Virus record (IMG/VR): IMGVR_UViG_3300026136_000008
Length of the DNA stretch: 64,000 bases
From: a virus
Reading direction: 5' to 3' (one strand)
Part shown: positions 3-26,012 of the stretch, piece after piece
Layout: the number at the start of each line of letters is the position of its first letter
How positions within the stretch are numbered: the stretch's first letter is position 1
The notes under the pieces: generated by a model
What the model saw: the letters and a program-made list of their open reading frames with translations, nothing else
The model's database searches: none
Told to the model about the DNA's origin: nothing
Program-made: the position numbers and the translations under genes

Positions 3-224
3 GAAATAGAATCTGGTAATGCAGCTAACGAACCGGTGAATTATGCGATTCGTACAGCTATTGAATATGCAGTCTTGCAAATGCTATATGAAGGAAGAGA
101 GTGTGGTTTATGGGAGTGGGCAGAACCAGTTATGGCAGAACGCGTAGACAAAGATGTCTTAAATTCTAATATACCACTTGATGATTGGGTAAAGCATCCA
201 ATTGAGGCAAAAGAAGGAGAGTAG
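3..224 (+). CDS. csgG: Curli secretion channel CsgG-family protein, C-terminal part (5'-truncated by the window)
   Basis: Frame is open from base 3: EIESGNAANEPVNYAIRTAIEYAVLQMLYEGRECGLWEW resembles the CsgG C-terminus (E.E.G...NEPV......AIE..V...I..G...GLW); curlin-like genes follow. Confidence 0.8.
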   Translation, partial: EIESGNAANEPVNYAIRTAIEYAVLQMLYEGRECGLWEWAEPVMAERVDKDVLNSNIPLDDWVKHPIEAKEGE

Positions 225-227
225 TAA

Positions 228-1337
228 ATGAAATTACTAACATTCTTTGTTATGACTTTGATGAGCATGCCATTAATGGCTGTAAATAAAATTTATGTAA
301 CGCAAGCTGGTGCCTCATTAGTTTTTGATGTACTACAAGATGGAGATGGTAATATGGTCGGTAATTCGACTACGGCATCAACGGTTAATGGATCAGCTTC
401 AAACTTTAATATCGACCAAGTGGGAGATAGTAATATAATCACCTTTGATATAAATGGTGATAACTTTGTTGGTACATGGAGTACCACAGGTAACAGTAAC
501 AATATTGATTTTAATTGTGACCCAGCAGATAATACAAGTGGTTGTGATGATGTCAATGCTGTTATCACATTTACTGGTAACTCACAAGACATTGATATAG
601 ATGTTGGTGGTACTACATCTGGTGATAATGCTGATATTGATATTGTTGGCCAATCAGGTACTGATAGTACTGTTGTTAATGCTACTATTGATGGTACAAG
701 TGCAATACTAAGATTAACAGTTAACGGCGACACAAATAACTATTTAATAGACATAGATGGTAATGGAGATGTTAATGGTCATACATTAATTATGACTCAA
801 ACTGGTATTACTGCTGATGTTGATGTTACTCAATCTGGTACAGATGATAACTCTATAACATTTACATCAACGGGCGATTCACAAAACATTGATATTACAC
901 AAACCTCTGGTGGTACAGTTACGGCAACAACAAGCGGAAGTACATCATCTGCGGTAAAGACAGTTAATATTAATCAGACTGCGGCCGCAACATTTAATAC
1001 AGATGGTACTATCCTTGGACAAACGTCATCTGGTCTTGCTGGTGCTGGTGGTACATACGATATTGACCAAACAGCTGCTGGTACAATTAACTTAGATGTA
1101 AATGGTGCAAGTGCGGATGTGAGTATAGAACAAACAAGTACAGGAACAGTAAATATTGATGCTGCTGGTGCAAGTTTTACTGCTGACATTGACCAAGATA
1201 ACGCAAGTACACTTTCATTACATCATGATGGTGCTAGTGGAGATTATGTTATATTGCAAACTGGTGGTAATGGAGATATATTAACCCTAACGGTTAACGG
1301 TGCTTCGGCAAACGTAGATATTATCCAAAGAGATTAA
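228..1337 (+). CDS. Secreted curlin-repeat (CsgA/CsgB-like beta-solenoid) protein
   Basis: N-terminal signal peptide; repeated I-D-I-x-Q-x-G-x-x-N units; G/S/T/N/D/Q-rich; directly downstream of csgG. Confidence 0.7.
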   Translation: MKLLTFFVMTLMSMPLMAVNKIYVTQAGASLVFDVLQDGDGNMVGNSTTASTVNGSASNFNIDQVGDSNIITFDINGDNFVGTWSTTGNSNNIDFNCDPADNTSGCDDVNAVITFTGNSQDIDIDVGGTTSGDNADIDIVGQSGTDSTVVNATIDGTSAILRLTVNGDTNNYLIDIDGNGDVNGHTLIMTQTGITADVDVTQSGTDDNSITFTSTGDSQNIDITQTSGGTVTATTSGSTSSAVKTVNINQTAAATFNTDGTILGQTSSGLAGAGGTYDIDQTAAGTINLDVNGASADVSIEQTSTGTVNIDAAGASFTADIDQDNASTLSLHHDGASGDYVILQTGGNGDILTLTVNGASANVDIIQRD

Positions 1338-1338
1338 T

Positions 1339-2439
1339 GTGCGATTATTTGTTATATTATGGTGTTTAACATTTTCATCATTCGCTAGTATAATTGGCGA
1401 TGTCATTAAGACAGAGGGCAGCGCTGCTATTCAAAGAACGGATGGTGAAGATGTTGAATCTGAATTAGATTTAGATATATTTCAGTATGATACTGTAAAG
1501 ACAGGTAAAGGTAAAGTCGCTATTGGCTTTATTGATGAAACGAGAGTAGATGTAACCCAACATTCAAAATTAATTATTGATGAATTTGTTTATGACCCAA
1601 ATACAAAGAAAGGTTCGTTATCACTAAAAGCAGCACTTGGTACAGTAAGATATGCTTCTGGCCAAATAGCAAAGACCAGTGCAACAAATGTTCAAATAAA
1701 AACGCCCACCGCAACGATAGGTGTTCGAGGTACAGATTTCTCGATGACGATAGACGAGCTAGGTAGCTCTACTATTATTCTTTTACCGTCATGTGATACA
1801 AATGGAAACTGCTTCGTAGGTGAAATAATAGTTGAATCTGATGCAGGTATGGTTATTATGAACCAAGCTTTTCAAGCTACGCTTGTAGATACAATTGATA
1901 GTAAACCTATAAATCCTGTTATTGTAGAGCTAGATGAAAGTTGGATCAGTAACTTACTTATTATATCAAAACCAAAGGAAATTGAAGAAGCAGTTCAAGA
2001 ATCAGAATTTAATAAAGTTGCAACTGCCCTTGATATAGACTTTCTAAAGTTTGAAGAATTAGAAATAGATTATTTAGAAGAGGTAGAAGATGATGCAGTA
2101 ACAATGCTTGATATTAATTTTTTAGATCAGAATTTTTTAGCAGATGTTTTAGAACAACTCAATCGTCAATTGGCATTACAAATGCAATCTGAATTTGATA
2201 AAAAGAAAGGAGTTGTGTACGATTTTAAATTAGGTAAAGACAAGGAAACAGGAATTACAATACTAGACGAAGATCCACAATGGTATTGGCATAGAGAAGC
2301 TGCAAGTGGTAGTGTGGTTGAATTAAGGCTTGAGAAAGAAAATAGTTATATGATGAATATACAACAAGGGGATTTCTATTTAATAGATTTTGAATTAGGA
2401 GGAACAGAAAGTGAAATCACTATTATTCAAAGTCAGTAG
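1339..2439 (+). CDS. Exported FecR-domain protein
   Basis: Signal peptide; FecR-type motifs DTVKTGKG and IKTPTATIGVRGTDF; acidic C-terminal half. Confidence 0.8.
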   Translation: MRLFVILWCLTFSSFASIIGDVIKTEGSAAIQRTDGEDVESELDLDIFQYDTVKTGKGKVAIGFIDETRVDVTQHSKLIIDEFVYDPNTKKGSLSLKAALGTVRYASGQIAKTSATNVQIKTPTATIGVRGTDFSMTIDELGSSTIILLPSCDTNGNCFVGEIIVESDAGMVIMNQAFQATLVDTIDSKPINPVIVELDESWISNLLIISKPKEIEEAVQESEFNKVATALDIDFLKFEELEIDYLEEVEDDAVTMLDINFLDQNFLADVLEQLNRQLALQMQSEFDKKKGVVYDFKLGKDKETGITILDEDPQWYWHREAASGSVVELRLEKENSYMMNIQQGDFYLIDFELGGTESEITIIQSQ

Positions 2440-3193
2440 TATATTACTATTATGCTTACCTGTATTTGCTAACAACGAGATATACATTTCGCAAGTTGGC
2501 ACAAGTAATAACTTTACATTAGATATAACCCAAGATGGTGATGATAATGTAGTAAATTTTTCTGTATCACACGATGATAATACAATTACAATTGACCAAG
2601 AGGGTGAAGATGGTTATGTAGGTTATACTACGGCATGGGGAACTCAATCTAATGGAGATTTAGATGGTTCTGACAATAATATTAATATTAAGCAATACTG
2701 TAATCAAACTGTTTGTGGTGGTGATAGATTTGAATTTCACATAATGGGTAATGATAATGATGTTGATTTTTATCAAGGGTATAGTGTAAATACTTCGAAT
2801 AATCCAGGAACTCCAGATTTATTTGAAGCAGGTGGTCACTTTGTAAGATTAGATATTCATGGTTCTAATAATAGATTTTTAGGAAGTCAAAGATCACATA
2901 ATACAGGACACGAACACTCAAATACTTCAAACATTTATGGTAATTATAATGACATTTATATGAGGCAAGATAGCAATCAAGATAAAACAATGACTTTAAC
3001 TGTCAATAATTCTAATAATGATATTGATATGATACAAACTGGAAGTGCTGAACATAGTGCTACTATTACATTGAGTGGTTCTTATGCTACAGATTTAGAT
3101 TTATTACAAAAAGGTGGTACAGCACAGTCATATACTTTAACACAAACGTGTACGACTGCGAGTGGATGTTCAGTTCAAGTTACACAACAATAG
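2411..3193 (+). CDS. Second secreted curlin-repeat protein
   Basis: Signal peptide; NEIYISQVG, LDITQDGDDN, ITIDQEGED, IDMIQTG repeats; C-terminal Cys pair. Confidence 0.7.
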   Translation: MKSLLFKVSSILLLCLPVFANNEIYISQVGTSNNFTLDITQDGDDNVVNFSVSHDDNTITIDQEGEDGYVGYTTAWGTQSNGDLDGSDNNINIKQYCNQTVCGGDRFEFHIMGNDNDVDFYQGYSVNTSNNPGTPDLFEAGGHFVRLDIHGSNNRFLGSQRSHNTGHEHSNTSNIYGNYNDIYMRQDSNQDKTMTLTVNNSNNDIDMIQTGSAEHSATITLSGSYATDLDLLQKGGTAQSYTLTQTCTTASGCSVQVTQQ

Positions 3194-3201
3194 TATAAAT
3201 A
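3194..3201 (+). promoter_or_regulatory. T4-type late promoter (TATAAATA), 5 nt before the cyclase ATG
   Basis: Exact consensus between genes; ATG at 3207. Confidence 0.7.
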
Positions 3202-3206
3202 GGTTT

Positions 3207-5048
3207 ATGAAGAAAATATTATCACATTGGTCTATAGCATTTGTTACTCTTATAGCATTAACCTATATCGGTTTACAAGATCCATGGGTCAAAGAGATAC
3301 TACGACTTAAATCATTTGACTATGTATTGCAAAATGAAGAGAAGACTCCTTCTCAAGCAATATCAATAGTTACCATAGACGAAGCAGCGATCGAAGAACA
3401 TGGTCAATGGCCATGGGATCGTGATACGCTTGCTAACCTCATACTTCAATTAAGGAATGCAGAGACAGGTATTATTGTTATGCCTATATTGTTTAGTGAG
3501 GAAGATAGGTTTGGTAGTGATGATACATTCTGTGAAACATTAACGTATGGTACAGTTATTGCCCAAACAGGTACAGCACAAGAAAGAACATCTAATCCAG
3601 TACCGAGAGGTGTGGCAAAGATAGGAGATCCGTTACCATATTTGTATGAGTGGAATGGCATGGTTGGTCCATTACCTAAACTTGCAGAATGTGCAGGTGG
3701 TGTTGGTGTCATTAATACTGCTCCTGAGATTGATGGTGTTGTAAGACGAGTTCCATTACTTATGAAGATAGGTGAAGAGGTATATCCGAATATGGCAATA
3801 GAAACTATTCGTGTTGCTGTAGGTGACCCATCATATCAAGTCAAAGCTGATGAGACTGGTATTGTGGCTATGAGAGTTCCTGCTTATGCTACAATTAATA
3901 CAGATACAAATGCTCGTGTATGGGTAAGATGGAATAAAGAATTCAAAACAATGAGTGCCGCATCTGAAGACTTCACGCCGCTTGCGGGTACCACAGTCAT
4001 TATTGCTATGACAGCAGAGGGATTAGGTGGAGTGATTGCAACGCCTGTGGGTGAACAATATGACTATGTTATATCTGCACAAACCCTTCAAACAATATTA
4101 GATGGCGAAACAATAAAGCGATACGATAGCCTTATAGAGATACTGGCTGGATTCGTATTAGGTATAATCATCATACTTATTACTAGATTTACACCATATT
4201 GGATAATTGGTGTATCTTTATTAGGTGTATTTGGTGGAGGTATATATTACTTCCAACATATGTTTAGTACACAATTAGTTCTTGTAGATATTACATGGGC
4301 ATTATTAACATTCTTTATTGTAGGATTCCATGCTACATTCAATAGATTCATATTAGAGTTTAGGCAGAAACAACAGATTAAGAAACAGTTCGAACACTAC
4401 TTAGATCCAAGACAAGTCAAAGAACTACAGAAAAATCCTGACTTATTGAAGTTAGGTGGTGAGAGAAAAGAAATGTCTTATTTGTTTATGGACATTATTG
4501 GATTTACACCTATATCAGAATACTATAAAAACAATGATGACCCAGAAGGATTAGTCGTTCTTGTTAATGAATTCTTAGATGAGATGACAAATATTATATT
4601 GGCTAATGGTGGTATGGTCGATAAGTTTATGGGTGATTGTATTATGGCAGTATTTGGTGCACCACTTGATATGCCTAATCATGCTGAGATGGCGGTGAAG
4701 TCTGCTATTGAAATAGAAGCAAAGACATTAGAACTAAAACAAAGATATAAAGATCGTGGCTTACCTGATATAAACGTAGGTACAGGTGTAAATACTGGAC
4801 CAGCAATTATCGGTAATATGGGTAGCTCTACACGATTTGATTTTAGTGTAATAGGTGATGCTGTTAATCTAGCAGCAAGACTAGAAGCAACAGCAGGAAG
4901 GGGAGATTATTCAAAATATCCAACTATATATTCCTCAATGACAATGGATCAGTTACCTGATACTTATAAATCTAAAAAGATTGGCGATATAAAAGTTAAG
5001 GGGAAAGAAGACGTAATAACTATTTATGCCGCTGTTCCCTCTTCATAA
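3207..5048 (+). CDS. CHASE2-domain membrane-bound class III adenylate cyclase
   Basis: CHASE2 motifs (IVTIDE, GQWPWDR, DGVVRRVPLL), three TM helices, cyclase motifs LFMDIIGFT, DKFMGDCIMAVF, FSVIGDAVNLAARLE (Lys and Ser at the adenine-specifying positions); start moved to ATG 3207. Confidence 0.92.
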   Translation: MKKILSHWSIAFVTLIALTYIGLQDPWVKEILRLKSFDYVLQNEEKTPSQAISIVTIDEAAIEEHGQWPWDRDTLANLILQLRNAETGIIVMPILFSEEDRFGSDDTFCETLTYGTVIAQTGTAQERTSNPVPRGVAKIGDPLPYLYEWNGMVGPLPKLAECAGGVGVINTAPEIDGVVRRVPLLMKIGEEVYPNMAIETIRVAVGDPSYQVKADETGIVAMRVPAYATINTDTNARVWVRWNKEFKTMSAASEDFTPLAGTTVIIAMTAEGLGGVIATPVGEQYDYVISAQTLQTILDGETIKRYDSLIEILAGFVLGIIIILITRFTPYWIIGVSLLGVFGGGIYYFQHMFSTQLVLVDITWALLTFFIVGFHATFNRFILEFRQKQQIKKQFEHYLDPRQVKELQKNPDLLKLGGERKEMSYLFMDIIGFTPISEYYKNNDDPEGLVVLVNEFLDEMTNIILANGGMVDKFMGDCIMAVFGAPLDMPNHAEMAVKSAIEIEAKTLELKQRYKDRGLPDINVGTGVNTGPAIIGNMGSSTRFDFSVIGDAVNLAARLEATAGRGDYSKYPTIYSSMTMDQLPDTYKSKKIGDIKVKGKEDVITIYAAVPSS

Positions 5049-5191: not shown

Positions 5192-5216
5192 AAAAAAAAA
5201 GGCTCCCGAAGGAGCC
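5192..5216 (-). terminator. Rho-independent terminator with UUCG loop
   Basis: GGCTCC-TTCG-GGAGCC followed by T9 on the minus strand, just after the nitroreductase-like stop. Confidence 0.9.
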
Positions 5217-5225
5217 TTAGAAATG

Positions 5226-5906: not shown

Positions 5907-5925
5907 TTTTTTCTCCTTATGTTAT

Positions 5926-6008
5926 AAAAACGTAAGATTGCAATCATGAGATTATTCCGGATAGTCCTTCTCCGTTGTTACTGAACGATTTCGAATAATT
6001 GCTCTTAC
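5926..6008 (-). ncRNA. Candidate structured late RNA (small RNA or 5' leader/attenuator)
   Basis: Nested pairings GTAAGA/TCTTAC, GCA/TGC, ATTATTC/GAATAAT, GTTC/GGAC around AGTA...GAA; starts at the predicted +1 and is followed by GTTTTT. Confidence 0.4.
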
Positions 6009-6013
6009 AGGTG

Positions 6014-6021
6014 TATTTATA
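6014..6021 (-). promoter_or_regulatory. T4-type late promoter
   Basis: TATAAATA immediately after the upstream stop codon. Confidence 0.7.
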
Positions 6022-6468
6022 CTAATCTTTACTTCTACGTGCAGCTAATTCAGCCTTCATAGCATCATACTTATCTTTCCTACGCTGATCTACTGCTGCT
6101 TGTTCTGCCTTTCTTCTTGCTCTTCGTTGTGCAGCCCATGGACCGACAACATTAGTAAATATTAAAAATCCGATTACGCCGTATAAAACGGTTTCTGTTA
6201 AATTTGCAAACATAAATGCCCTCAGTTGTTCTTCATTTCCAGCTTCTATCTCACTTATTTGTGGTTTGTCATCAGGTAATACTGAATCGACTGCTACTGA
6301 TGTTGCTGCATTCACTGCCGCTGGAATAGGGCCTGCTACAACGTATGTGGCACCAGTAGTTGCCGCTGTTTTAATTAAATTCTTGGGATCTAATGCGTTG
6401 AATCCGCCTAACATACTACATCCACTTATAGAAAGGGCTAATGTGCCCGCTAATATTTTCTCAATCAT
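6022..6468 (-). CDS. Lipoprotein with a C-terminal TM helix (unimolecular-spanin-like topology)
   Basis: Lipobox ISG-C with Ser at +2; TM VLYGVIGFLIFTNVVGPW; basic tail. Confidence 0.55.
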   Translation of the reverse strand: MIEKILAGTLALSISGCSMLGGFNALDPKNLIKTAATTGATYVVAGPIPAAVNAATSVAVDSVLPDDKPQISEIEAGNEEQLRAFMFANLTETVLYGVIGFLIFTNVVGPWAAQRRARRKAEQAAVDQRRKDKYDAMKAELAARRSKD

Positions 6469-6472
6469 ACAC

Positions 6473-7459
6473 TTATTTATATGGTTTTAGCGGTGCAATG
6501 CCAACTATATGTATTCGCGGTTCAAGTGATGAATTAATTGCTGTATGTGGTTTAGTAGTATCAAAGTAATATGGATAACCATTATCAGGTACATGGAATA
6601 ATCTCCACTTATCATCTGTCATAAAAGCCCATTCATTTGTTTCTACTACTAAATGTATACGTGGAGTAGGATCAAAATGGAATGTATAACAACCTTTAGG
6701 TGGTAGAACCATTAATCTAGTTCTTGTTAAGCCTTCAGTTTGTATAAACCTTGCAATCTCTGAATCTTCAGGGACGTTAAGCTTATTAAAATCATTTTCA
6801 GAAGATCCATCTGGTAACTTATCTATTTGTAATAAACCAGTATAGAAGTCTTTACCATCACGTGATTGTAACATAATTTGATTATCATGTAAATCAGGTA
6901 AGTCTTTTATTTCTTCACGTATTCTTGTAAGATTATATTTACGGTTAATCTTTTTATGTTGCGCTGCATACATGCCAGAATACTTATATAGCTTATCTGA
7001 TCTTTTCATTTGTTCGCTTGACCTATCATCATCAGGTAGTATTGTCATTTCCTTTACACGATTTGGATTTAATAATACCCATTCAATAGTATCAAGAACA
7101 GATTGAAGTGTCATTTTATTGTCAGATATATCAGCAACTCTTTCAGTATCTAACCAACCAAAACGTAAAGCTGTGGTATTCATGCCTAAATAGAATAGTT
7201 GTTCGTTTGCTTTATCTAATGCAGCTTTCTCAACAGCGTATACATGCTTCCATTTTTTAAAGCCATCCCCGCTGTTTGAGCTTATGTTAATTGCAGTTTT
7301 ATTTAAGTCATAAGCTTTATATAACATTTCTACTTGACTAAATCCATCATGCTTACAATTAATAAACACATCACATTCTTCGAGAGACTCAACTGTATTT
7401 AATCTATCGTGAAGGTACTTACCTAACCCTCGTCTAATCCCCGTTATATAAAACTTCAT
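6473..7459 (-). CDS. Fusion of a minimal SDR-like domain and an Asp/Asn beta-hydroxylase-like Fe/2OG oxygenase
   Basis: ITGIRRGLG and YAVEK (SDR); RLMVLPPKGCYTFHFD, PHTAIN, RIHIV (HxD...H...R). Confidence 0.7.
   Translation of the reverse strand: MKFYITGIRRGLGKYLHDRLNTVESLEECDVFINCKHDGFSQVEMLYKAYDLNKTAINISSNSGDGFKKWKHVYAVEKAALDKANEQLFYLGMNTTALRFGWLDTERVADISDNKMTLQSVLDTIEWVLLNPNRVKEMTILPDDDRSSEQMKRSDKLYKYSGMYAAQHKKINRKYNLTRIREEIKDLPDLHDNQIMLQSRDGKDFYTGLLQIDKLPDGSSENDFNKLNVPEDSEIARFIQTEGLTRTRLMVLPPKGCYTFHFDPTPRIHLVVETNEWAFMTDDKWRLFHVPDNGYPYYFDTTKPHTAINSSLEPRIHIVGIAPLKPYK
6474..6481 (-). promoter_or_regulatory. T4-type late promoter
   Basis: TATAAATA-N5-ATG(6468), overlapping the upstream stop codon. 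Confidence 0.65.
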
Positions 7460-8939
7460 TTAAATCGCCATTGTAAAATATGTATTGTTTATTATTAGGA
7501 TATATAATCTCTAATTTTTCTGGGTGTACTTGCCATGATGTAGAATCTTTAATGTCTTCTTGAACACCAAAAATATGAGGAAGTTCTTTTAATAATTTAT
7601 GAAAAAACAGCGGTGATTTATCACGTGACCAATAAGCTACTTTATGTTCTTGAAAGTATCCTAATAATTCAAATACGTATTTAAGCTCTTCCCAATCATC
7701 TACTTTATCTAATAGTGTTGATCCATCTGTTTTATATTGGTCAAATTCAAAATACCTTGAAAAAATCCTTGCTGCTTTACCATGTTCTTGTACACCACTT
7801 GCAAACATCGGTGGTAGTTGTCTATGGTATATTTCTTTGCCTCTTACATCATGCTTATATCTTTTATGTTTTAGTAATGGACCAAATACAATATTGTATA
7901 CCCACATCTTATCTAGGTGCAATCCTTTTTCTGAATAGTTATCTGCTAATCTATGGTTGTGCCTCTCTTTTTCCATTAATTTAAATGCATTTGCGCACAG
8001 CTCAAGTTCTTTATAAGTTAATTTAGGATTTACTTTTCCTCTCCATATATAAGGTACTACCTTTTCGCCCTTAGGTAAATATCTAATTGGAGGTATTCTA
8101 TCCCATTCTTCTATAGGTAATTTATTATATTGTGGACCACATAAAATTCCATGTATATCTTTTTCAGTCCATGTTCGTGATCTTCTACCTTCAGATCTAT
8201 AACATGTGATATGAGCAATTAATCTACGTCCACTAAATATATCGCAATCAGTTACTACATCTTCATAAGCATGATATTTATTTTTATAATGAAGCTGTAC
8301 TGAATTTGCTATTGTATTTAATTCTAAGCCATCTCTCCAAACCCTTTGATCTTTCATAGGCTCTTGTATGATAGCATGACGAGCCCCATATGCTTGTTGT
8401 ATATCTTGAAAATATCTCTGATGTTGTTGCGGTTCATATAATAAAACACCTGACCATATTAAACAATCAACTTTATAATCAACTTGATAGGCAACTTCTA
8501 CATTAGGTGTTGCGTCACTTGCAAATATATCATCTATAAATTTATATGTACCAACTTTATATTCTATGCCTGGAAATTCTTCCCACACCTTTTGTGCGTA
8601 TTCAATAGATTCTGTACTTGTATCAAATCCAAAGTAACGATAATCCTCGTCGATATAACCTCTCTCATATAATATATCATTTACTGGGCCGTGTCTACAA
8701 CCAATATCGACTATGGTCTTATGACCAAATTTCATTATATAATCTGCTTGAGCTTCGAATATAGGTTTAGCTTCATCACTATCTAAATAATCCATACTAT
8801 AATGCCTATATTCTTCTTGCAAAGGAACCTTATCGTACTCACCCTCCGGCAACCTAGGCCAAGGCATTCCATTTACAAAGTGCGGTTCTTTAGTTTCTAT
8901 TTCAGGAGTATGTTTTTTCCACATGTTCTTTAAATTCAT
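7434..8939 (-). CDS. Class I SAM-dependent methyltransferase domain fused to an unknown C-terminal domain
   Basis: IVDIGCRHG motif I, YFGFDTS motif II, DCLIWSGVLLY. Confidence 0.65.
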   Translation of the reverse strand: MNLKNMWKKHTPEIETKEPHFVNGMPWPRLPEGEYDKVPLQEEYRHYSMDYLDSDEAKPIFEAQADYIMKFGHKTIVDIGCRHGPVNDILYERGYIDEDYRYFGFDTSTESIEYAQKVWEEFPGIEYKVGTYKFIDDIFASDATPNVEVAYQVDYKVDCLIWSGVLLYEPQQHQRYFQDIQQAYGARHAIIQEPMKDQRVWRDGLELNTIANSVQLHYKNKYHAYEDVVTDCDIFSGRRLIAHITCYRSEGRRSRTWTEKDIHGILCGPQYNKLPIEEWDRIPPIRYLPKGEKVVPYIWRGKVNPKLTYKELELCANAFKLMEKERHNHRLADNYSEKGLHLDKMWVYNIVFGPLLKHKRYKHDVRGKEIYHRQLPPMFASGVQEHGKAARIFSRYFEFDQYKTDGSTLLDKVDDWEELKYVFELLGYFQEHKVAYWSRDKSPLFFHKLLKELPHIFGVQEDIKDSTSWQVHPEKLEIIYPNNKQYIFYNGDLNEVLYNGD

Positions 8940-9483
8940 TATATGTTTTATTTATACCTCTCCAGGCAAAGCAAAATATAGCTCGAGGTGCTTCAACCAC
9001 TTGTACATCATGTAAGTAAGCAGTGTTTAATAATACTGGCTTGTCAACCAGTATTTCCCCCATCTGTATTGCTGGATATTTGTCTTGCAACATATTCCAA
9101 TGAGTCTTGCCATGCCTATATTCTAATTGATGTTGATGTGTTTCGTATATGCCAATCTTTGCTTGACCAAACATAGGTAATAATAAATTAAATTGATTGC
9201 CTTCTCTCTCATCAAAATCTATATGAGGTGGAACACCCGATCTTAAAGTACCATTTAAGTTAAAGCCCGTACCGTGTTCGCACATACCCATATGAGCGTC
9301 TGATCCCCATGTTAATAATCTATCCCATTGTCTATAATAATCTGGGTTAGATATAAGAACATGTGATTCAGTACCACATTCGATATACTCTAAGGCTGTC
9401 TCACCACGAACTTCATTATGCATTCGTATAAGCCAATCTTTATCATAATCGACATTAACATATTCAGCTATTCCACTTAGCAT
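8902..9483 (-). CDS. Cupin / Fe-2OG oxygenase-like protein
   Basis: PPHIDFD...FNLLLP...LNTAYLHDV...PRAIF. Confidence 0.55.
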   Translation of the reverse strand: MLSGIAEYVNVDYDKDWLIRMHNEVRGETALEYIECGTESHVLISNPDYYRQWDRLLTWGSDAHMGMCEHGTGFNLNGTLRSGVPPHIDFDEREGNQFNLLLPMFGQAKIGIYETHQHQLEYRHGKTHWNMLQDKYPAIQMGEILVDKPVLLNTAYLHDVQVVEAPRAIFCFAWRGINKTYNEFKEHVEKTYS

Positions 9484-10099
9484 CCCATTCCTTATATTGT
9501 TCTACCCATTTTTGTGGTCTATCTTTCATGTCAGGTTTTCTTTCTTTCGGTTCATTTAACCAATAATTATTATGGTCAAATATTTCAATACATACATCTT
9601 TGACCCATTCATAATTACCTGGCACACATTCTTTCCAGCCATTGTTCATGCAAAAAGTATCATAAACTATACCACCCATTTTCTCTATTAAATGTCTTGT
9701 CATATCAAAATGTCTATGCCCAGCATTTTTTGTTACAGGTGTAAATGTTATTACATAGATAGGTTTATTTGAGAATGGTCCATCTTGACCAAGATCAGAA
9801 TTAAAATGTGTTGAACATATTATCCAATCCATTGCATTCTTAAATCCAACAGAATAATGAGCAGTAGCTTCAGGTACTGCAAACACTAATATATCTGCCT
9901 CTTTAATAACCTTTAAAAAGTTATGTACACGAGCTAAGACTTTACCATCAGCACTATTCTTATTACAAATAGGCATATTAAAATCTGTCATGTCATACAC
10001 GTAATCAAGACCCATTAATCCTAGGCCTCGTGTGTTCATGGAATTTTCTGCGTAACTAAAGGATATTCCTGTAATTACACTTTTAGTATGCGCCGACAT
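9464..10099 (-). CDS. NAD(P)H-dependent FMN reductase family protein
   Basis: IKEADILVFAVPE...YSVGFKNAMDW...FSNKP. Confidence 0.8.
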   Translation of the reverse strand: MSAHTKSVITGISFSYAENSMNTRGLGLMGLDYVYDMTDFNMPICNKNSADGKVLARVHNFLKVIKEADILVFAVPEATAHYSVGFKNAMDWIICSTHFNSDLGQDGPFSNKPIYVITFTPVTKNAGHRHFDMTRHLIEKMGGIVYDTFCMNNGWKECVPGNYEWVKDVCIEIFDHNNYWLNEPKERKPDMKDRPQKWVEQYKEWDAKWNS

Positions 10100-11030
10100 T
10101 TTTAAATTTGTTTTTAAAGCCTTTCATACCTTTTTTTAATTCTTCATTACTCAACACATTATTATAGAATTCTGGTAATGGCATAATAGTACTATAATCA
10201 GTTGCTATTCTCCATAGCTCACGATCTAAATCACTTATTGCTGTTCGTCTATGTAGTGAGGCAAACTGGTCCATAAGTATTAAGTCGCCCTTTTTAAATA
10301 TGTGATGATCCATATATTTAGATCTCATTATTTTTTTATATAATGTATCAACAAATTCATCTCTGTCAATTTGCTTTCTCTTTCCACCTGGTGGTGTATA
10401 CCATACCTTTCTAATAAAATGATATGAGAAATAGATATAGTCTTCATTAGTATGCGGATGCTTACCACACAATGGTCTAATTTGACCACTATGACTATCC
10501 ATCACTTCTAACTCTGGATCATCATCTTCTATTTCCATCATAGTATTATTTTTGTATTTAAAATAACAAATAATATTATTATAATAATCTTTCTCTTCTT
10601 GTGAAAAATCTTTAAATACATCTCTTGTATTTACAATCGATAAAGTAGTATCTTCACATTCCTTGTGACAATATAATCCTATTAGTATTTTTTTAATATC
10701 TTTCCTTGAGTTTCCGTTTGAATGCCAACCTAATTCTTTTTCACCAAACATACCTACTTTCTTTCCATCTATTTTTTTGCCAGTGACAATAAAGATTTCT
10801 GGATTCTCTGGAGGATTCATCCAAAGCTTTGGTGTTTCAGGTTCACCAAACCTTTTCATTACTTCAACATATTCTGACTGAGTAAAGTCTTGCTCATAAA
10901 AGAAAACTGGCTTACCGGTTTGAACTTCTTTTGCAACTTCTAATAGTTCTTCATTAGAAAAATCTAATAATTTTTTGTCAGAATTTGATGTTTGTGTAGT
11001 CAAATGCAGTTCTCCATAATTGTCTTTCAA
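10083..11030 (-). CDS. TauD/TfdA-family dioxygenase (HxN variant)
   Basis: LGWHSNG; HIFKKGDLILMDQFASLHRR; RELWR. Confidence 0.8.
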   Translation of the reverse strand: MKDNYGELHLTTQTSNSDKKLLDFSNEELLEVAKEVQTGKPVFFYEQDFTQSEYVEVMKRFGEPETPKLWMNPPENPEIFIVTGKKIDGKKVGMFGEKELGWHSNGNSRKDIKKILIGLYCHKECEDTTLSIVNTRDVFKDFSQEEKDYYNNIICYFKYKNNTMMEIEDDDPELEVMDSHSGQIRPLCGKHPHTNEDYIYFSYHFIRKVWYTPPGGKRKQIDRDEFVDTLYKKIMRSKYMDHHIFKKGDLILMDQFASLHRRTAISDLDRELWRIATDYSTIMPLPEFYNNVLSNEELKKGMKGFKNKFKNVGAY

Positions 11031-16784: not shown

Positions 16785-16929
16785 TCTTGTAAAATTCCTC
16801 TGAGTTATGATTTGCTTTAAATTGTTTTATCCATATATTGTTTGCATTATGCGAACTTATAACTCGTGCGGCTTCTAACTGAAGTTCACGTGTATCAAAA
16901 GTATTTATAAGCTCTTCTATTGCGTCCAT
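16699..16929 (-). CDS. Hypothetical protein, 76 aa
   Basis: Bridges two genes of the operon with overlaps. Confidence 0.55.
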   Translation of the reverse strand: MDAIEELINTFDTRELQLEAARVISSHNANNIWIKQFKANHNSEEFYKNVIRWYIIEYGGFPSEVEPGSKIKLLYV

Positions 16930-18050
16930 AATGGGATCATATTTCCTGGCTTGCGTTTAGGTATCTTACTATCGGCTGAAGATACACAAGCACTTGTTGT
17001 ACATATCTTGGGTCCATCATATAACTTAAACCCAGTTTCTATTTGGCCTAATGGTTCATCATGGCAAGAATAACTTCTTTTGATTGTACCATCTGGTTCA
17101 CGTATAATAATACTTCTATAACCTGATGAACATTCCCATCCATTAAAGTTATTAAAGTTAAATGCATTGAATCTTTCTGCCTGATCCATATACCATTTCT
17201 TACCATGCTTATCTGTAAATTCTATTTCAAAGTGAGCAGGTACTTTACCATATCTATTATCTACTGCTTTGTTTCTCCACTTATAATGTGGTCTATCAAC
17301 TTTAGATTTTTCTTGAGTGTATGCTCGTTGTGGCATTCCTTTATGTAAAACTGCTAATTGTTCATCTGTATATCCATCTACAACAAATGAAGCGGTAGGA
17401 TCTGATTGAGGTTTAAGTGTTACATTTATATCTCTGCTATGAAAGTACAATGCTTCCTCATAAAATTTCTCAAAGAACTCAGGCACCATAACTATATTAA
17501 TAGTAACTTGTATATTATGTTCTTGACAGAATTCTAATTTGTCTGCAAATTCTTTTACCTTCTTTGGTGTGTTTACATGTTCTCTATGATAAGAAGCTGT
17601 AATCGATACACGATGCATATCTTTAGATGCTTGATAATATTCCTCGAACCATTTTAACGGTCGAGAAATATTTGAGGTCATGTGAAGTGAGTGAAAATTA
17701 CATCTGCTAACATCATCATTGAGATGACGTACAATATCCAAATACTGTGGATGAAAGGTTGGCTCTCCACCAGAGAGGCTAAAGTGGAACGAATTAAACC
17801 CCCTTTCCCTTGCTTGTCTTTTAATTTCATCTATTGTTCCTATAGTTGCTTTAAGTGGTCTATGGTCTTTCTTATCTGATCTTGCATACGGCCAGCAATA
17901 AGAACAGCGGTAATTACAGAATCTTCCTAGTAACCAAGATACTGTAAATGTATCTCTATCCAACATAGAACGTGTACCAAAATGTTCTATATCATCAAAA
18001 GGTATTTGACCGAAGTCATATTCACTCCACTTTAATTCTTTTACTGCCAT
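16917..18050 (-). CDS. Radical SAM protein with C-terminal SPASM/twitch-type Cys cluster
   Basis: CNYRCSYC, SGGEPT, C-terminal CSSG...C...C...C. Confidence 0.9.
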   Translation of the reverse strand: MAVKELKWSEYDFGQIPFDDIEHFGTRSMLDRDTFTVSWLLGRFCNYRCSYCWPYARSDKKDHRPLKATIGTIDEIKRQARERGFNSFHFSLSGGEPTFHPQYLDIVRHLNDDVSRCNFHSLHMTSNISRPLKWFEEYYQASKDMHRVSITASYHREHVNTPKKVKEFADKLEFCQEHNIQVTINIVMVPEFFEKFYEEALYFHSRDINVTLKPQSDPTASFVVDGYTDEQLAVLHKGMPQRAYTQEKSKVDRPHYKWRNKAVDNRYGKVPAHFEIEFTDKHGKKWYMDQAERFNAFNFNNFNGWECSSGYRSIIIREPDGTIKRSYSCHDEPLGQIETGFKLYDGPKICTTSACVSSADSKIPKRKPGNMIPLWTQ

Positions 18051-19090
18051 TGTGCTGCAAATGGGTCAAATGCTTTATTACATTTAAGAGCACAAACCTT
18101 TAATCGGTTAGGCCCAACTTCCCATGCTTCCTCTATTGAATTAAAAAATGTATTTATAATTTCTTCTATAGGTGTAGTGATTGCATTAATATCGTACTGA
18201 TCTATGTGTTCCCATATCTGTGCTTCACCTGGTTTTTGCCACCATTTATACATTTGTCCTGCTGTCCAACAACAAGGGAATACAAATCCCTCAGCTGAAA
18301 TATAAATCTCTTTTTTCTTTATGCATTTAGGCTCTATGTCAGCCACATCCAGATAAGAATCCATAGAACCAAACTTCCTAGTAATCTCATCAAATGTTGT
18401 GCTTGCCTTGTTCTTAAAGCGTTCCATAGTAGGTGGCTCCAAGAGTTGTGTGTGTTGCTCATGTCTGTCCTGTGATTGATGTGAATCTTTTTTCTTTAAC
18501 GTTGCACTAGAAATATATCTACCTGATTTCTTTACACTAAATGTTTTAACACCTAATGTCTTTGACCATAACTCAGCCTCTTCAAGCTGATGTTCGTTAT
18601 GTTTAAATACTAAGAATTCCCACTTCGCGTTACCACCTGCTTCACAAAAGGCGGCCATATTTTCTTCTACTTTATTCCAACTAACACCTTGTCTATACAA
18701 ATGATTAGTGTCATCTAAACCATCAACAGAGAATGTTACATGGTCTACAACCTTTGCTAACTCTCTCCACCAACCAGGTGTTCGTGCACCACCATTTGTA
18801 TTCATTGCAAGACGTATCTTCGGATTAACTTCCTTTAACCATTGGCATATCTCTAATGTTTCAGGTGCCATCATCGGATCACCATGATTACCACACATAT
18901 AGAGGTTCTCAAGCTGGCGTACAAAAGCTTCAGGCATCATAATCTTGACATCCATCAATGATAGATCAGCATTAGTTAAATGATAATTATCTTTACCACC
19001 ATTCACATTACGATCACACATTGGACATCTTGCCTGACACTTCTGCGTTGGCTCAAGATGAACCTGTTTTATATCTTCGTATTTGTACAT
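18041..19090 (-). CDS. Radical SAM/SPASM protein
   Basis: CQARCPMC, CGNHGDP, FSVDG, PKC...FPCC...CALKC. Confidence 0.9.
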   Translation of the reverse strand: MYKYEDIKQVHLEPTQKCQARCPMCDRNVNGGKDNYHLTNADLSLMDVKIMMPEAFVRQLENLYMCGNHGDPMMAPETLEICQWLKEVNPKIRLAMNTNGGARTPGWWRELAKVVDHVTFSVDGLDDTNHLYRQGVSWNKVEENMAAFCEAGGNAKWEFLVFKHNEHQLEEAELWSKTLGVKTFSVKKSGRYISSATLKKKDSHQSQDRHEQHTQLLEPPTMERFKNKASTTFDEITRKFGSMDSYLDVADIEPKCIKKKEIYISAEGFVFPCCWTAGQMYKWWQKPGEAQIWEHIDQYDINAITTPIEEIINTFFNSIEEAWEVGPNRLKVCALKCNKAFDPFAAQWQ

Positions 19091-19989
19091 TATACCCCTG
19101 GTTCAGTAATCCCTGGATAATATTTTAATGCTTCTTTAGGATCATTATTCCAAATATGAGCGGTAGCCCATTGTTTTTCTATACACCACCAACAGCGTTT
19201 ACATTCTGTTTTAAATCCATCTGTTCTTTCCCATGGTCCTTCACAACTTCTTGTTAATGGACCAAGCTCTAATAATAACCCATACTTTTTATATAAAGCT
19301 AGTACAATTCTTTTATCATCGTGTATAAACGGAAGATTTTCAAAGAACTTATAATTAGAAACTTTTCTACCTTGATCACACAAATCATCTATTGCTTTTT
19401 GATTCCACTCTTTTCCACATAAAGCTTTTGCTTCAGGTCCAAATTCATTATCAATAATTGGAAGGTGTATCTCTTTAATTTCTTCTTCATCCCAACCAGC
19501 AGTATCATCATCACGATTCAAAGCTCTTTTTTCCCATGCTACACCCCAATATTGTTGTTCATGTTTTGATGGATTTAGTGTTACACCGTTAAATAATTTT
19601 GTTATTTTCCAATCATAAGCCATTTCCCATGATAATTCTGTACCATGATCCACATATTCTATTGAATTGGCTACGCTAGTTCTATGCTCTCCAAATTCAA
19701 CATTAGGGAAAGAATCTTTTACAAATTGAATAACTTTCTTTGCGTGATGAACTTGAAAAGGTCTTTCGTCAAGGCAGACCGACCATTGATGTATTGTTGT
19801 ATCCCAATTATTTTTATCAATATGATATGCAAGTAACCACAATAACATGGCTGAATCCATTCCACCTGACATGCCTATTCCGATATGTTTATCTGATTTA
19901 TCAATATTTAATTTTATATTATATGTTTTTTCATGAGGTATTGTTTTTGCTTTACCTCTTCCGTATATTACTATATTTTCCTCAATCAT
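19090..19989 (-). CDS. QueC-like PP-loop ATP pyrophosphatase
   Basis: MSGGMDS; LPFIHDDK; LTRSC...CKRCWWC zinc motif. Confidence 0.75.
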   Translation of the reverse strand: MIEENIVIYGRGKAKTIPHEKTYNIKLNIDKSDKHIGIGMSGGMDSAMLLWLLAYHIDKNNWDTTIHQWSVCLDERPFQVHHAKKVIQFVKDSFPNVEFGEHRTSVANSIEYVDHGTELSWEMAYDWKITKLFNGVTLNPSKHEQQYWGVAWEKRALNRDDDTAGWDEEEIKEIHLPIIDNEFGPEAKALCGKEWNQKAIDDLCDQGRKVSNYKFFENLPFIHDDKRIVLALYKKYGLLLELGPLTRSCEGPWERTDGFKTECKRCWWCIEKQWATAHIWNNDPKEALKYYPGITEPGV

Positions 19990-21146
19990 TAACTTAGCCT
20001 CTCGCTTAATTCAACATTTAGTTTTGAGCACCGCTTTGTGCAAACTTTTAATTTAGGCATGACCTCATCGTCATACGAATTAGACCAAGATTTCTCTAAG
20101 TCTTCTGTAAAGAATGGATGATTTACTATCTCATCCCATGTATGATAATTTATATTATTCCAATTCTCGTCATAGTTATCCATAAATCTTTCCCAAGCAT
20201 GTTTATCACCTGAGTTTAATCTTGTCCAATAGTTATAATTAGACTGATGCCAACAACATCTATATACTCCACCATCGTGTGATATTTGCCACATACCATT
20301 TTCAGACCATTCACATACTATACCAGATTTTTCTTTTGCATTATCTAGATTCTGTTCTACACTTAAAGCAGGATTAATCTCAACATCTTGTATGAGTGTC
20401 TTCGCTTTTTCTGCCACCTCATCTAAATTACTCTTAGGTGATAAATTGATTTCTGCATCACGCATATCTTTATAATCTGCATCTTCACCTTTCATAGCTT
20501 TAAAGATGGCTAACTTACTTGCTACTTGTTCTATTCGCTGTACTCTATCTCTATGAAATTCTGCAAACCCATATTCTGTGGCTAACTCTTTTGCTCTTTC
20601 TTCTAGTGGTTCATTAAATTCAAATGGAATCATTTTCCAACATGCAGTACCACCCGCACCTATAAATGCTTTTGCATTTGCAATAATCTTATCAAAGCTA
20701 GTATTGATTCTATACATTTCTTGTGTTTCATTATCGACACCATCTAAATCAAAAAAGATTTTATGACGATCTACACCATCAACAGTAGGTAAATGCTCAC
20801 TTAATATAGCACCAAGTTTTGCCCACCATTTTGGATTACGCATAGATGCATTAGTAGATATAGTAAGCATCTCTATATCTTTCTTTGCTGCGTATTCTAT
20901 CATCTCTAGAAATTTTGGATGAAGAGGAGAATCACCAAATCCACCATCGTATGATATATACTTTAATGGAGAAGCCTCATCAAGTAATTTGTTATGAGCT
21001 TCTAATGTCATATTAATATTTTTTGGCGGACCGCCAATTTCATCTGTAACAGAATTAATTACTTTATGGCGTATACACCCAGGGCATTTTGCCTGGCAAT
21101 TTGATGTAACCTCTATGGTTAATTGATCTAATCTATTATCAAGCAT
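19989..21146 (-). CDS. Radical SAM/SPASM protein
   Basis: CQAKCPGC, GGFGD, C-terminal C...YRCC...CTKRC. Confidence 0.88.
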   Translation of the reverse strand: MLDNRLDQLTIEVTSNCQAKCPGCIRHKVINSVTDEIGGPPKNINMTLEAHNKLLDEASPLKYISYDGGFGDSPLHPKFLEMIEYAAKKDIEMLTISTNASMRNPKWWAKLGAILSEHLPTVDGVDRHKIFFDLDGVDNETQEMYRINTSFDKIIANAKAFIGAGGTACWKMIPFEFNEPLEERAKELATEYGFAEFHRDRVQRIEQVASKLAIFKAMKGEDADYKDMRDAEINLSPKSNLDEVAEKAKTLIQDVEINPALSVEQNLDNAKEKSGIVCEWSENGMWQISHDGGVYRCCWHQSNYNYWTRLNSGDKHAWERFMDNYDENWNNINYHTWDEIVNHPFFTEDLEKSWSNSYDDEVMPKLKVCTKRCSKLNVELSERLS

Positions 21147-22317
21147 TTACATAATCCCATATTTTAGGAGCCATCTCTTTTGCAGATACATCATATAATT
21201 CATCTTGTAGTTTTACTAGTTCTTTAAACTTATATGTATCTATTGTTCTTTTACCTGTCAATCTCTTTAAGAATTCTTTTGTAAAATCATTTTCATCTGT
21301 ATTTGCTAACAAATGAAGCTTGACATCTTCTTCAAGATTTACAATATCCATAACCTGAGGCCAATGAACAAATGTAGCTCTTATATTTGCAGGTGTATCA
21401 ATTGAGTCTCTTATATCACACAAGTCTTTATATATTTCATTCATATAAAAAGCCTGATATGATGATGTAGTACACACAAATAAAAACTTAGTTACATATG
21501 GTGCAATCTCTTTTATATTATTTATAACTGTTTGGTAATCTCCCCCAGTTCTAAAGTAATTAAACAGATCGCCTGTGCCATCCATAGATACTGTTACATT
21601 TACACCTTTAAAATGCGGCCAAAGATCTTTAACATTATATCCTTTATATTCTAAGATACTCATATTTGTATTGTATATAAGTTGAATCTTTTTCGTATCA
21701 ATGTTTGGATCATCTATCATTCTATGTAAGTGTTTATACATATCTCGTGTATAGAATGGTTCACCACCAGAAAATTCTATTCCTTCTACTCCACGCGGTA
21801 TAACATTTTTAAATAAATCATCAATAACTTCAGTAGCCGGAACAGGAATCTTTTCTTTAGGTGTAGATATATGTGTGAATTGAAAATCCTTTCTTAATTT
21901 TGTTTCTATCTCAGGGAATTGTCTACCAGTTAATTCGAATCTTGAATTAGATGCTGTGTCACAATGTCTACACTGATAGTTACAAGCTCGGGTTGCTTTG
22001 ATCTGTAAATCTTTTATATAGATATTATCACTATCATAATCAGGTTCAGATATATGAGCAATGTCTAGTGATCGTGTTCTATACGAAGATACTCCAGCCT
22101 CTTCTTGTATTTTACAATCTATACAACCATTTGGAAATACACCATTACGAAGTTGCTGACGAACCTTTACAAAGTCACTATTATTAATTACTTCAGAAGG
22201 AAGTTTATCACTACCTGATTCTACAAAGTCATGCCTTTTAAAACGAAAGCATGGAGCATATCCACCTTTCTTGAAGTCTAAATGACCCCAAGCATATTTA
22301 CATTTTAGCATCCCCAT
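21139..22317 (-). CDS. Radical SAM protein with N-terminal twitch-type domain
   Basis: CKYAW...PC...CIDC; CNYQCRHC; SGGEPF; VSMDG. Confidence 0.88.
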   Translation of the reverse strand: MGMLKCKYAWGHLDFKKGGYAPCFRFKRHDFVESGSDKLPSEVINNSDFVKVRQQLRNGVFPNGCIDCKIQEEAGVSSYRTRSLDIAHISEPDYDSDNIYIKDLQIKATRACNYQCRHCDTASNSRFELTGRQFPEIETKLRKDFQFTHISTPKEKIPVPATEVIDDLFKNVIPRGVEGIEFSGGEPFYTRDMYKHLHRMIDDPNIDTKKIQLIYNTNMSILEYKGYNVKDLWPHFKGVNVTVSMDGTGDLFNYFRTGGDYQTVINNIKEIAPYVTKFLFVCTTSSYQAFYMNEIYKDLCDIRDSIDTPANIRATFVHWPQVMDIVNLEEDVKLHLLANTDENDFTKEFLKRLTGKRTIDTYKFKELVKLQDELYDVSAKEMAPKIWDYVNA

Positions 22318-25969: not shown

Positions 25970-26012
25970 ATAAATAAACTTATGTTAATCAATTTATTAT
26001 TATTTATATGAA
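25965..26012. promoter_or_regulatory. 13-bp inverted repeat holding two face-to-face late promoters and both start codons
   Basis: TTCATATAAATAA (25965-25977) and TTATTTATATGAA (26000-26012); TATAAATA at 25969-25976 (+) and 26001-26008 (-). Confidence 0.7.

Follow-up and report, generated by a model that had tools for sequence, protein, structure and literature searches.

A viral curli block with a FecR-fold protein and a CHASE2 adenylate cyclase in an uncultured marine T4-like phage: a candidate envelope-spanning unit

Curli channel genes have been described from several marine T4-like phages. In pelagimyophages, Zaragoza-Solas et al. (2020, PMC7029224) reported a csgF/csgG operon with three unassigned genes, placed in a hypervariable region that separates the replication module from the structural one, and in the phage Melnitz CsgGF was discussed as a possible lysis-timing pore, with no mention of a cyclase or FecR (Buchholz et al. 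2022, PMC9004378). The full set of genes, (histidine kinase)-CsgF-CsgG-CsgA/B-FecR-CsgA/B-adenylate cyclase, was recorded in podo- and myo-pelagiphages by Wittmers et al. (2022, PMC9599517), who termed FecR and the cyclase putatively regulatory, stated that the two do not belong to bacterial type VIII secretion system (T8SS) operons, and detected viral curli genes both in metatranscriptomes and at every one of the 65 GOV2 stations, with viral curli proteins making up approximately 0.1% of assembled viral proteins. Here we analyse such a block, at positions 3 to 5048 of the IMG/VR virus record IMGVR_UViG_3300026136_000008; 'the window' denotes the whole stretch of 64,000 nucleotides. The block is a further example of the published viral curli module, and its gene linkage was already known (PMC9599517). 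An earlier note, made from the sequence alone, had pointed to the curli channel genes of marine T4-like phages and had proposed that the block works as a trans-envelope relay signalling through cyclic AMP (cAMP). This relay idea was not found in the papers on viral curli cited here, and CHASE2, homology to adhesin retention modules and bacterial chromosomal copies are not mentioned in any of the three papers above.

Genes elsewhere in the window, for a T4-like baseplate wedge, for tail fibres and for radical-SAM proteins, identify its source as a T4-like myophage, uncultured and marine, of the SAR11/OM43 phage group and Kyanoviridae type. Its closest cultured relatives, Pelagibacter phage HTVC008M and Methylophilales phage Melnitz, have hosts belonging to different classes; in both, the full set of six genes is present with its order unchanged (KC465899, 7562-13807, and MZ577097, 50731-56876). 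The window cyclase shares 68% identity with that of HTVC008M and 49% with that of Melnitz, and the FecR protein 65% and 53%, respectively. These two were the only GenBank phages recovered by tblastn with the FecR protein, and megablast of the block region against GenBank phages gave no match. The features of the block are:

3..224, plus strand: 3' end of csgG, last 73 codons plus stop, the remainder of csgG lying upstream of the window
228..1337, plus strand: cur1, curlin-repeat protein of 369 amino acids (aa), assigned by its family profile against curlin structures
1339..2439, plus strand: FecR-fold exported protein, 366 aa, assigned by PF04773, phrog_37870 and an AlphaFold2 (AF2) model
2411..3193, plus strand: cur2, curlin-repeat protein, 260 aa, with Curlin_rpt at the cut-off, and profile A3
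3162..5048, plus strand: CHASE2/class IIIb-like adenylate cyclase, 628 aa from GTG 3162, assigned by PF05226, PF00211 and phrog_35576
5199..5218, minus strand: G+C-rich terminator-like hairpin, 8-pair stem with 5 GC pairs and a T-run as T-tail on the minus strand

The five open reading frames (ORFs) are tightly packed on one strand, as the earlier note had described, with spacings of 3, 1, -29 and -32 nt; the last becomes a gap of 13 nt, and the cyclase 613 aa long, if translation starts at ATG 3207 rather than GTG 3162. The hairpin sits between the cyclase gene and a convergent minus-strand gene and marks the 3' border of the block.

We tentatively regard these genes as a single self-contained envelope-spanning unit in which a periplasmic plug, a CHASE2 sensor and cAMP would be joined in one mechanism; we hold this to be the likeliest account overall, with somewhat less than even confidence. 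The first line of evidence is linkage. A search of viral sequences gave 305 stretches with the cyclase as query and at least 597 with the FecR alignment, from which the best 80 matches of each were fetched, a sample that leaves out the podophage versions. In every fetched locus whose sequence extends 5 kb or more upstream of the cyclase gene, csgF, csgG, cur1, the FecR gene and usually cur2 stand before it in this order, down to 40% cyclase identity. The cyclase is present in 36 of the 37 FecR loci for which 3.5 kb or more of downstream sequence was available. The co-occurrence and synteny across marine phages that had been put forward as a check thus hold in the fetched loci that have enough flanking sequence. 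In one locus (L038) an inversion puts the curli/FecR genes on the strand opposite to the cyclase, to which they are still adjacent. Three distant relatives, one of them a 289-kb contig (L152, L158 and L159), have cur2 separated from the cyclase by additional genes spanning 2-3 kb. Upstream of csgF, where PMC9599517 places a histidine kinase in podophages, neither a histidine kinase nor a CHASE2 protein was found in eight myophage-type loci, where the genes in this position are devoted to nucleotide metabolism, encode a bilin reductase or have no assigned function.

The same cassette was found outside phages. When the FecR alignment was scanned against GTDB, with each species represented by one genome, the full cassette turned up at eight loci, of which three (L167, L168 and L170) are chromosomal and belong to Caulobacterales: two Caulobacteraceae metagenome-assembled genomes (MAGs) and one Henriciella MAG, the latter on a 396-kb contig. 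Gene order is the same as in the viruses. The flanks differ from genome to genome and comprise genes for TonB-dependent receptors, methylmalonyl-CoA mutase, acyl-CoA dehydrogenase, amidohydrolase, glycosyltransferase and peptidase; the GC content of the three carriers is 0.5-0.6 and dips across the cassette, and each genome encodes 4-7 cyclic nucleotide monophosphate (cNMP)-binding proteins. The cassette-type FecR protein is rare in this order, with 1 of 401 genomes positive at E <= 1e-15 with one protein query. The occurrence of the cassette among ordinary chromosomal genes implies that it works without other phage genes, and the statement that FecR and the cyclase are foreign to bacterial T8SS operons (PMC9599517) needs qualifying in the light of these copies.

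The other five loci, labelled as MAGs of Pelagibacter TMED203, Luteolibacter, Sphingobacteriales, Planctomycetaceae TMED10 and Bacteroidetes (L164, L165, L166, L169 and L171), were considered as bacterial and rejected as likely mis-binned phage contigs. The Luteolibacter and Sphingobacteriales loci are flanked by phage genes for DNA polymerase and clamp loader, the Bacteroidetes locus has homologues of the T4-like structural ORFs of the window's phage, and endolysin genes are among the phage evidence for the five; the Pelagibacter TMED203 and Planctomycetaceae TMED10 loci are probably phage, judging from short contigs, low GC and similarity to viral copies. Mis-binned phage contigs of this kind are a trap for host or taxon assignments.

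In a tree of the cyclases, the cassette-linked enzymes form one clade (support 1.0) apart from 39 curli-less alphaproteobacterial CHASE2 cyclases, and within it a single phage contig falls together with the three bacterial copies (0.996). Support at the next node above them is 0.03, too low to place these copies within the clade or to read a direction of transfer between phage and bacterium from the tree. A single cyclase clade together with the chromosomal cassettes argues that the six genes have a single origin and form a unit also outside phages.

The pore and fibre components were identified as follows. The csgG fragment matches the viral CsgG hidden Markov model (HMM) at positions 222-261 of 262 (E 8e-18) and phrog_20175 (E 9e-12), and the NCBIfam CsgG model weakly (E 1e-3), so that the earlier assignment stands with the nuance that just the tail of the gene lies within the window. 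In close relatives (L056, L006 and L008), csgF-csgG lie immediately 5' of the cur1 homologue and csgG is full-length; csgF is directly upstream of csgG in all relatives with flanking sequence, and the window starts inside csgG, past the part of the gene that would hold the lipobox. Pfam detected Curlin_rpt in cur2 at the cut-off and nothing in cur1. With family profiles, both ORFs previously called 'curlin-like' match solved curlin structures: 8C50 at E 5e-15 and CsgA 8ENQ at E 2e-4 for cur2, and the same structures at E 2e-4 and E 1e-2 for cur1 (profile A4). The two families are mutually homologous (hhalign P 100%), and the N-terminus is hydrophobic and signal-peptide-like in both curlins and in the FecR protein. 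The window cur1 is 369 aa long, compared with approximately 226-228 aa in HTVC008M and most relatives, the surplus being added C-terminal curlin-type repeats with HMM copies at residues 236-324 and 307-369. In the closest long relative, an IMG/VR contig with a 95% identical cyclase (L004, 4033-7970), frame breaks are present in csgG, the FecR gene and cur2, with cur1 and the cyclase intact; these could be assembly errors or module decay.

The FecR protein matches PF04773 (E 4e-9) and phrog_37870 (E 5e-142). It consists of a signal peptide, an all-beta N-domain (residues ~20-183), an acidic linker (~200-295) with two conserved LD(I/V)(D/N)FL motifs, and a C-domain (~300-364), and carries the invariant patch TPTATIGVRGTDF. 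In an AF2 model built from 58 sequences, the N-domain has a pLDDT above 90 and the linker is of low confidence, with pLDDT below 55. Apart from the signal-peptide-like start, neither a transmembrane segment nor an anti-sigma domain was found in the protein. Foldseek matched the N-domain to the cell-surface-signalling domain of PupR (6OVK_R, E 2e-4) and to the anchoring domain of the Marinomonas adhesin MpIBP (5IX9, E 9e-4), the latter with 35% identity and a root-mean-square deviation of 1.0 A over 62 columns; the family profile A2 reaches 5IX9 also by sequence (E 1.5e-4). The structure 5IX9 is region I of MpIBP, an RTX (repeats-in-toxin) adhesin, and served as template for the retention module of LapA; in both adhesins the module is a periplasmic plug that holds the adhesin threaded in its outer-membrane pore (bioRxiv 10.1101/198937). 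The N-domain of the FecR protein is thus homologous to the periplasmic retention ('plug') module of MpIBP.

The pairing of such proteins with CHASE2 is widespread in bacteria. CHASE2 was present in 66 of 151 alphaproteobacterial genomes; in a sample of one CHASE2 gene from each of 40 genomes, a FecR-type ORF lay within approximately 6 kb of 15, mostly adjacent, and near none of the 40 were csgG, csgF or curlin genes found. Pfam confirmed PF04773 in all nine partners tested (9/9). Seen from the other side, 12 of 72 other FecR-type loci have a CHASE2 neighbour. In a Burkholderia biofilm operon ('BiofilmReg'), a LysM-FecR gene precedes that of a CHASE2 histidine kinase (PMC5192318). The earlier claim that FecR-domain proteins often stand beside CHASE2 proteins is borne out by these counts and by this operon. 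The example given for it was wrong: Sinorhizobium NsrA is an outer-membrane beta-barrel receptor acting upstream of CyaK, CyaD1 and CyaD2 (PMC7529298), and the actual FecR-domain neighbour of cyaD1 in S. meliloti is SMc02177 (PMC5498481). In that organism CHASE2 is an inhibitory input domain (PMC7529298), and CyaD1 lacking CHASE2 is constitutive (PMC5498481).

Some partners are adhesin-like. Two CHASE2-adjacent proteins (L260 and L277) combine a FecR-type N-domain with Ig/cadherin and RTX repeats, and in Rhodospirillales and related MAGs (L172-L197) a FecR-type N-domain heads giant ORFs of 5-11 kb; the Pfam 'FecR' domain seems to include the RTX adhesin retention module. In a 1.2-Mb Pelagibacteraceae genome (L275, G417), a CHASE2 protein with a SpoIIE/PP2C phosphatase output was observed 1.3 kb from a FecR-domain protein (5923-7971 and 9252-10805), which means that some hosts own a native FecR-CHASE2 pair without a cyclase.

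The cyclase has CHASE2 at residues 31-339 (PF05226, E 1e-37) and Guanylate_cyc (PF00211, E 3e-18), and belongs to phrog_35576 (E 4e-265). From hydrophobic segments at 19-38, 320-354 and 368-392, its layout is read as an N-terminal transmembrane helix, a periplasmic CHASE2 (~27-340), a hydrophobic block (~320-392) and a cytoplasmic cyclase domain (~427-616). Among solved structures the protein is closest to the class IIIb enzymes CyaB (3R5G) and CyaC (1WC1), with which the metal-binding D444 and D492 and the transition-state N569 and R573 align; these four residues are kept in 88-96 of 96 viral homologues, and the substrate lysine K488 is invariant in all of them. The catalytic residues, D444, K488, D492, N569 and R573, are therefore present, as had been stated. 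For the adenine-specifying residues the statement needs refining: Lys488 is intact, and the second residue is Ser562, at the position of the Thr of class IIIb CyaB/CyaC, not Asp as in class IIIa (among the viral homologues, 83 have Ser here, 5 have Thr and 4 have Asp). The protein is predicted to be a class III (IIIb-like) adenylate cyclase making cAMP.

Conservation is distributed unevenly along the block. Measured against the remotest relatives, whose cyclase domain is 30-50% identical, median identities are 62% for the FecR N-domain, 53% for CHASE2, 41% for the catalytic domain, 34% for cur1 and 29% for cur2. That the sensor has changed less than the catalytic output speaks for a ligand that is a fixed protein rather than something variable in the environment. 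To our knowledge, no ligand of CHASE2 has been identified since the domain was defined. When pairwise distances were compared across 51 viral loci, the matrices for the FecR N-domain and CHASE2 matched each other best (rho 0.86). The catalytic domain (427-616) correlated poorly both with its own CHASE2 (rho 0.35) and with the other parts of the block (0.35-0.54), a pattern that suggests output-domain exchange or a different rate regime.

Put together, CsgG with CsgF would form an outer-membrane pore through which the two Sec-exported curlins would pass to build a surface fibre. The FecR-fold protein, also exported by Sec and no anti-sigma regulator, would most likely remain periplasmic and work as plug or adaptor at the pore or just beneath it; its acidic linker and the small beta-domain at its C-terminus may tether it to pore or fibre. 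It would serve as the protein ligand of the periplasmic CHASE2 of the adjacent cyclase, which in turn would convert the state of pore, fibre and plug into cAMP in the infected cell. We hypothesise a tether running through the pore from the retention-module homology, the flexible linker and the curlin-like C-terminal motif. The contact between FecR protein and CHASE2, the location of the former and a downstream role of cAMP are inferred from the evidence given above; signalling might run outside-in or as feedback on secretion, and the direction of information flow, like any effect on lysis timing, is conjecture.

Several observations count against this mechanism. The most serious weakness of any reading based on cAMP signalling is the missing receiver: neither cNMP-binding (PF00027) nor GAF or GAF_2 domains were found in five phage genomes (those of HTVC008M and Melnitz being complete), and among 121 Pelagibacteraceae genomes PF00027 occurs in 6 and class III cyclases (PF00211) in 3; some of those ORFs (583-596 aa) may themselves be phage. 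Adjustment of host transcription, as suggested in the earlier note, is thereby left with no visible route in SAR11. The linkage has an exception in the L145 lineage, where radical-SAM genes stand in the place of the cyclase gene, and many podophages carry curli and FecR genes without a cyclase (PMC9599517), which implies a role of the FecR protein that does not need the cyclase. Independent segregation of the cyclase, which had been named as damaging to the relay, is countered by 36 of 37 linked loci and favoured by its dispensability in this lineage. In S. meliloti, SMc02177 is dispensable for perception of the plant signal (PMC5498481). The FecR protein differs from true retention modules in possessing a Sec signal and no RTX or type I secretion system (T1SS) features; no HemolysinCabind domain was detected by Pfam and no TAAG motif in its sequence. 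Its C-domain, small and six-stranded (pLDDT 89 when modelled alone), gave no clear match in fold searches (Foldseek best E 0.15, VIA best Z 3.7). For the step that would fasten it to the fibre, the single indication is the I-x-I-x-Q ending common to the FecR protein (ITIIQSQ), cur1 (NVDIIQRD) and cur2 (SVQVTQQ), and the step is put forward as a hypothesis. Finally, shared ancestry inflates distance correlations, and the match between FecR N-domain and CHASE2 is consistent with protein contact and not a proof of it. The relay as first proposed is partly supported, by the linkage, by the FecR-CHASE2 pairing and by the precedent of an outer-membrane relay (PMC7529298), and weakened by the receiver that was not found and by the mistaken example of NsrA.

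The C-domain was also considered as a curlin repeat unit joining the fibre, and this was rejected: hhalign gave P 18-45% with cur2 and nothing with cur1, and no curlin fold was seen. The C-terminal half aligns weakly with CsgF (hhalign P 40%).

A bolder form of the proposed mechanism would make CHASE2 domains in general the receptors for FecR-fold plugs of surface fibres and adhesins, with the cassette of phages and Caulobacterales as a minimal version: a curlin-to-plug tether threaded through CsgG would gate the cyclase, and contact, pulling or assembly would be reported by cAMP to an unrecognised receptor. We consider this possible and, on balance, doubtful.

The alternative that survives best, and to which we give a minority share of belief, sees in the block a fibre factory with accessory regulators (Wittmers et al., Zaragoza-Solas et al.). 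Here a curli coat on the infected cell would serve aggregation ('sibling capture') or a superinfection barrier, the FecR protein would be a chaperone or gate replacing CsgE/CsgC, and the cyclase would tune expression or export, with no outside-in sensing. The two curlins are bona fide, and CsgE (PF10627) was not found in five phage genomes nor in three bacterial carriers, with a positive E. coli control; a periplasmic partner of CsgG is therefore otherwise missing, which also counts in favour of the plug reading, and CsgE is missing from many non-enterobacterial curli systems (PMC9599517). The cyclase-free curli and FecR genes of L145 and the podophages also fit this account. So does the behaviour of cur2, the fastest-evolving gene of the block, which is only approximately 30-31% identical even where the cyclase of relatives is 85% identical, a variability expected of a surface-exposed protein under diversifying selection. 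However, the N-domain of the FecR protein resembles plug and signalling domains rather than chaperones, FecR-CHASE2 pairs are common without curli genes, no transcription factor reading cAMP was found, and no clumping was seen in Melnitz cultures (PMC9004378).

An unlikely explanation is that independent genes merely share a variable region, the cyclase, with or without the FecR gene, serving host takeover on its own, by flooding the cell with cAMP or draining its ATP. The hypervariable position between replication and structural modules (PMC7029224) would suit it, as would the opposite strand of the cyclase in L038, its separation by 2-3 kb in L152, L158 and L159, and the poor correlation of catalytic-domain distances with the block (rho 0.35-0.54). 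Such independence is hard to reconcile with strict co-occurrence down to 35-40% identity, with the covariation of CHASE2 with FecR and curli genes, and with the six genes standing together in bacterial chromosomes with unrelated flanks.

We think it improbable that the block is primarily a lysis-timing pore, with CsgGF as a gated secretin or pinholin depolarising or opening the envelope late, triggered by cyclase and FecR protein. For Melnitz this was argued on the basis of synteny and modelled structures (Buchholz et al. 2022, PMC9004378), and it is compatible with the lysis timing suggested in the earlier note, but CsgG is an outer-membrane channel and unable to depolarise the inner membrane, the curlins, which are real, were overlooked in that study, and the chromosomal cassettes are not surrounded by lysis genes. 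Iron or nutrient uptake, in which an open CsgG pore would import siderophores or cofactors and FecR would signal iron status as in the Fec system, was raised in PMC9599517 and takes support from the Pfam name, and is very improbable given a FecR protein with neither cytoplasmic anti-sigma domain nor transmembrane segment, a block with neither an extracytoplasmic function (ECF) sigma factor nor a TonB-dependent transducer, and a FecR-type domain that heads adhesin-like proteins.

Elsewhere in and around the block, the T4 late-promoter motif TATAAATA at 3194 occurs at a frequency within chance expectation for A+T-rich DNA, and no enrichment of sigma-70-like sites was seen. Contigs from RNA libraries of three studies cover parts of all five genes at 90-99% identity; they agree with published expression data and cannot prove transcription of this particular phage. 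On the minus strand at 16917-28108, the window has 8-10 consecutive ORFs of similar size (300-480 aa), one of them a radical-SAM protein, several of which match the same regions of phage contig L171; the run may be a paralogous family in a variable region beside the tail-fibre genes.

Abundant in ocean viromes, the block endows infected SAR11/OM43 cells, which are without curli genes and mostly without cAMP signalling, with an envelope structure that is new to them. Should FecR and CHASE2 indeed form a sensor pair, both CHASE2 sensing and the purpose of viral curli become testable with a small gene set portable to E. coli, and the bacterial chromosomal copies offer a host that is possibly easier to cultivate.

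Among known systems, the viral T8SS regions of HTVC008M and Melnitz are alike in genes, gene order and T4-like phage kind; the window block differs by its longer cur1 and its downstream neighbourhood. The retention module of T1SS RTX adhesins (MpIBP 5IX9, LapA) shares the homologous N-terminal beta domain followed by a flexible stretch. In contrast to it, the phage protein has a Sec signal and is without RTX repeats, T1SS partners and the TAAG site of LapG; the outer-membrane partner of the adhesin module is TolC-like, that of the phage protein would be CsgG, and a plug role of the latter is suggested by homology. With the FecR/PupR anti-sigma regulators (6OVK), the likeness lies in the fold of a periplasmic domain that in those proteins contacts an outer-membrane protein and relays a signal inward; unlike them, the phage protein has no cytoplasmic anti-sigma domain or membrane anchor, and its block no ECF sigma factor or TonB-dependent transducer. 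The NsrA-CyaK/CyaD1/CyaD2-Clr pathway of S. meliloti (PMC7529298) also runs from an outer-membrane protein to CHASE2 cyclases as a trans-envelope cAMP relay, with the differences that NsrA is neither CsgG nor FecR and that the receiver, Clr, is known there and none was found here. The bacterial FecR-type/CHASE2 pairs are without CsgG, CsgF and curlins, and vary in the domains that accompany FecR (LysM, Ig/cadherin/RTX or none) and in their outputs (kinase, cyclase or SpoIIE phosphatase); what they have in common with the phage block is an exported FecR protein beside a membrane protein with a periplasmic CHASE2 and a cytoplasmic output.

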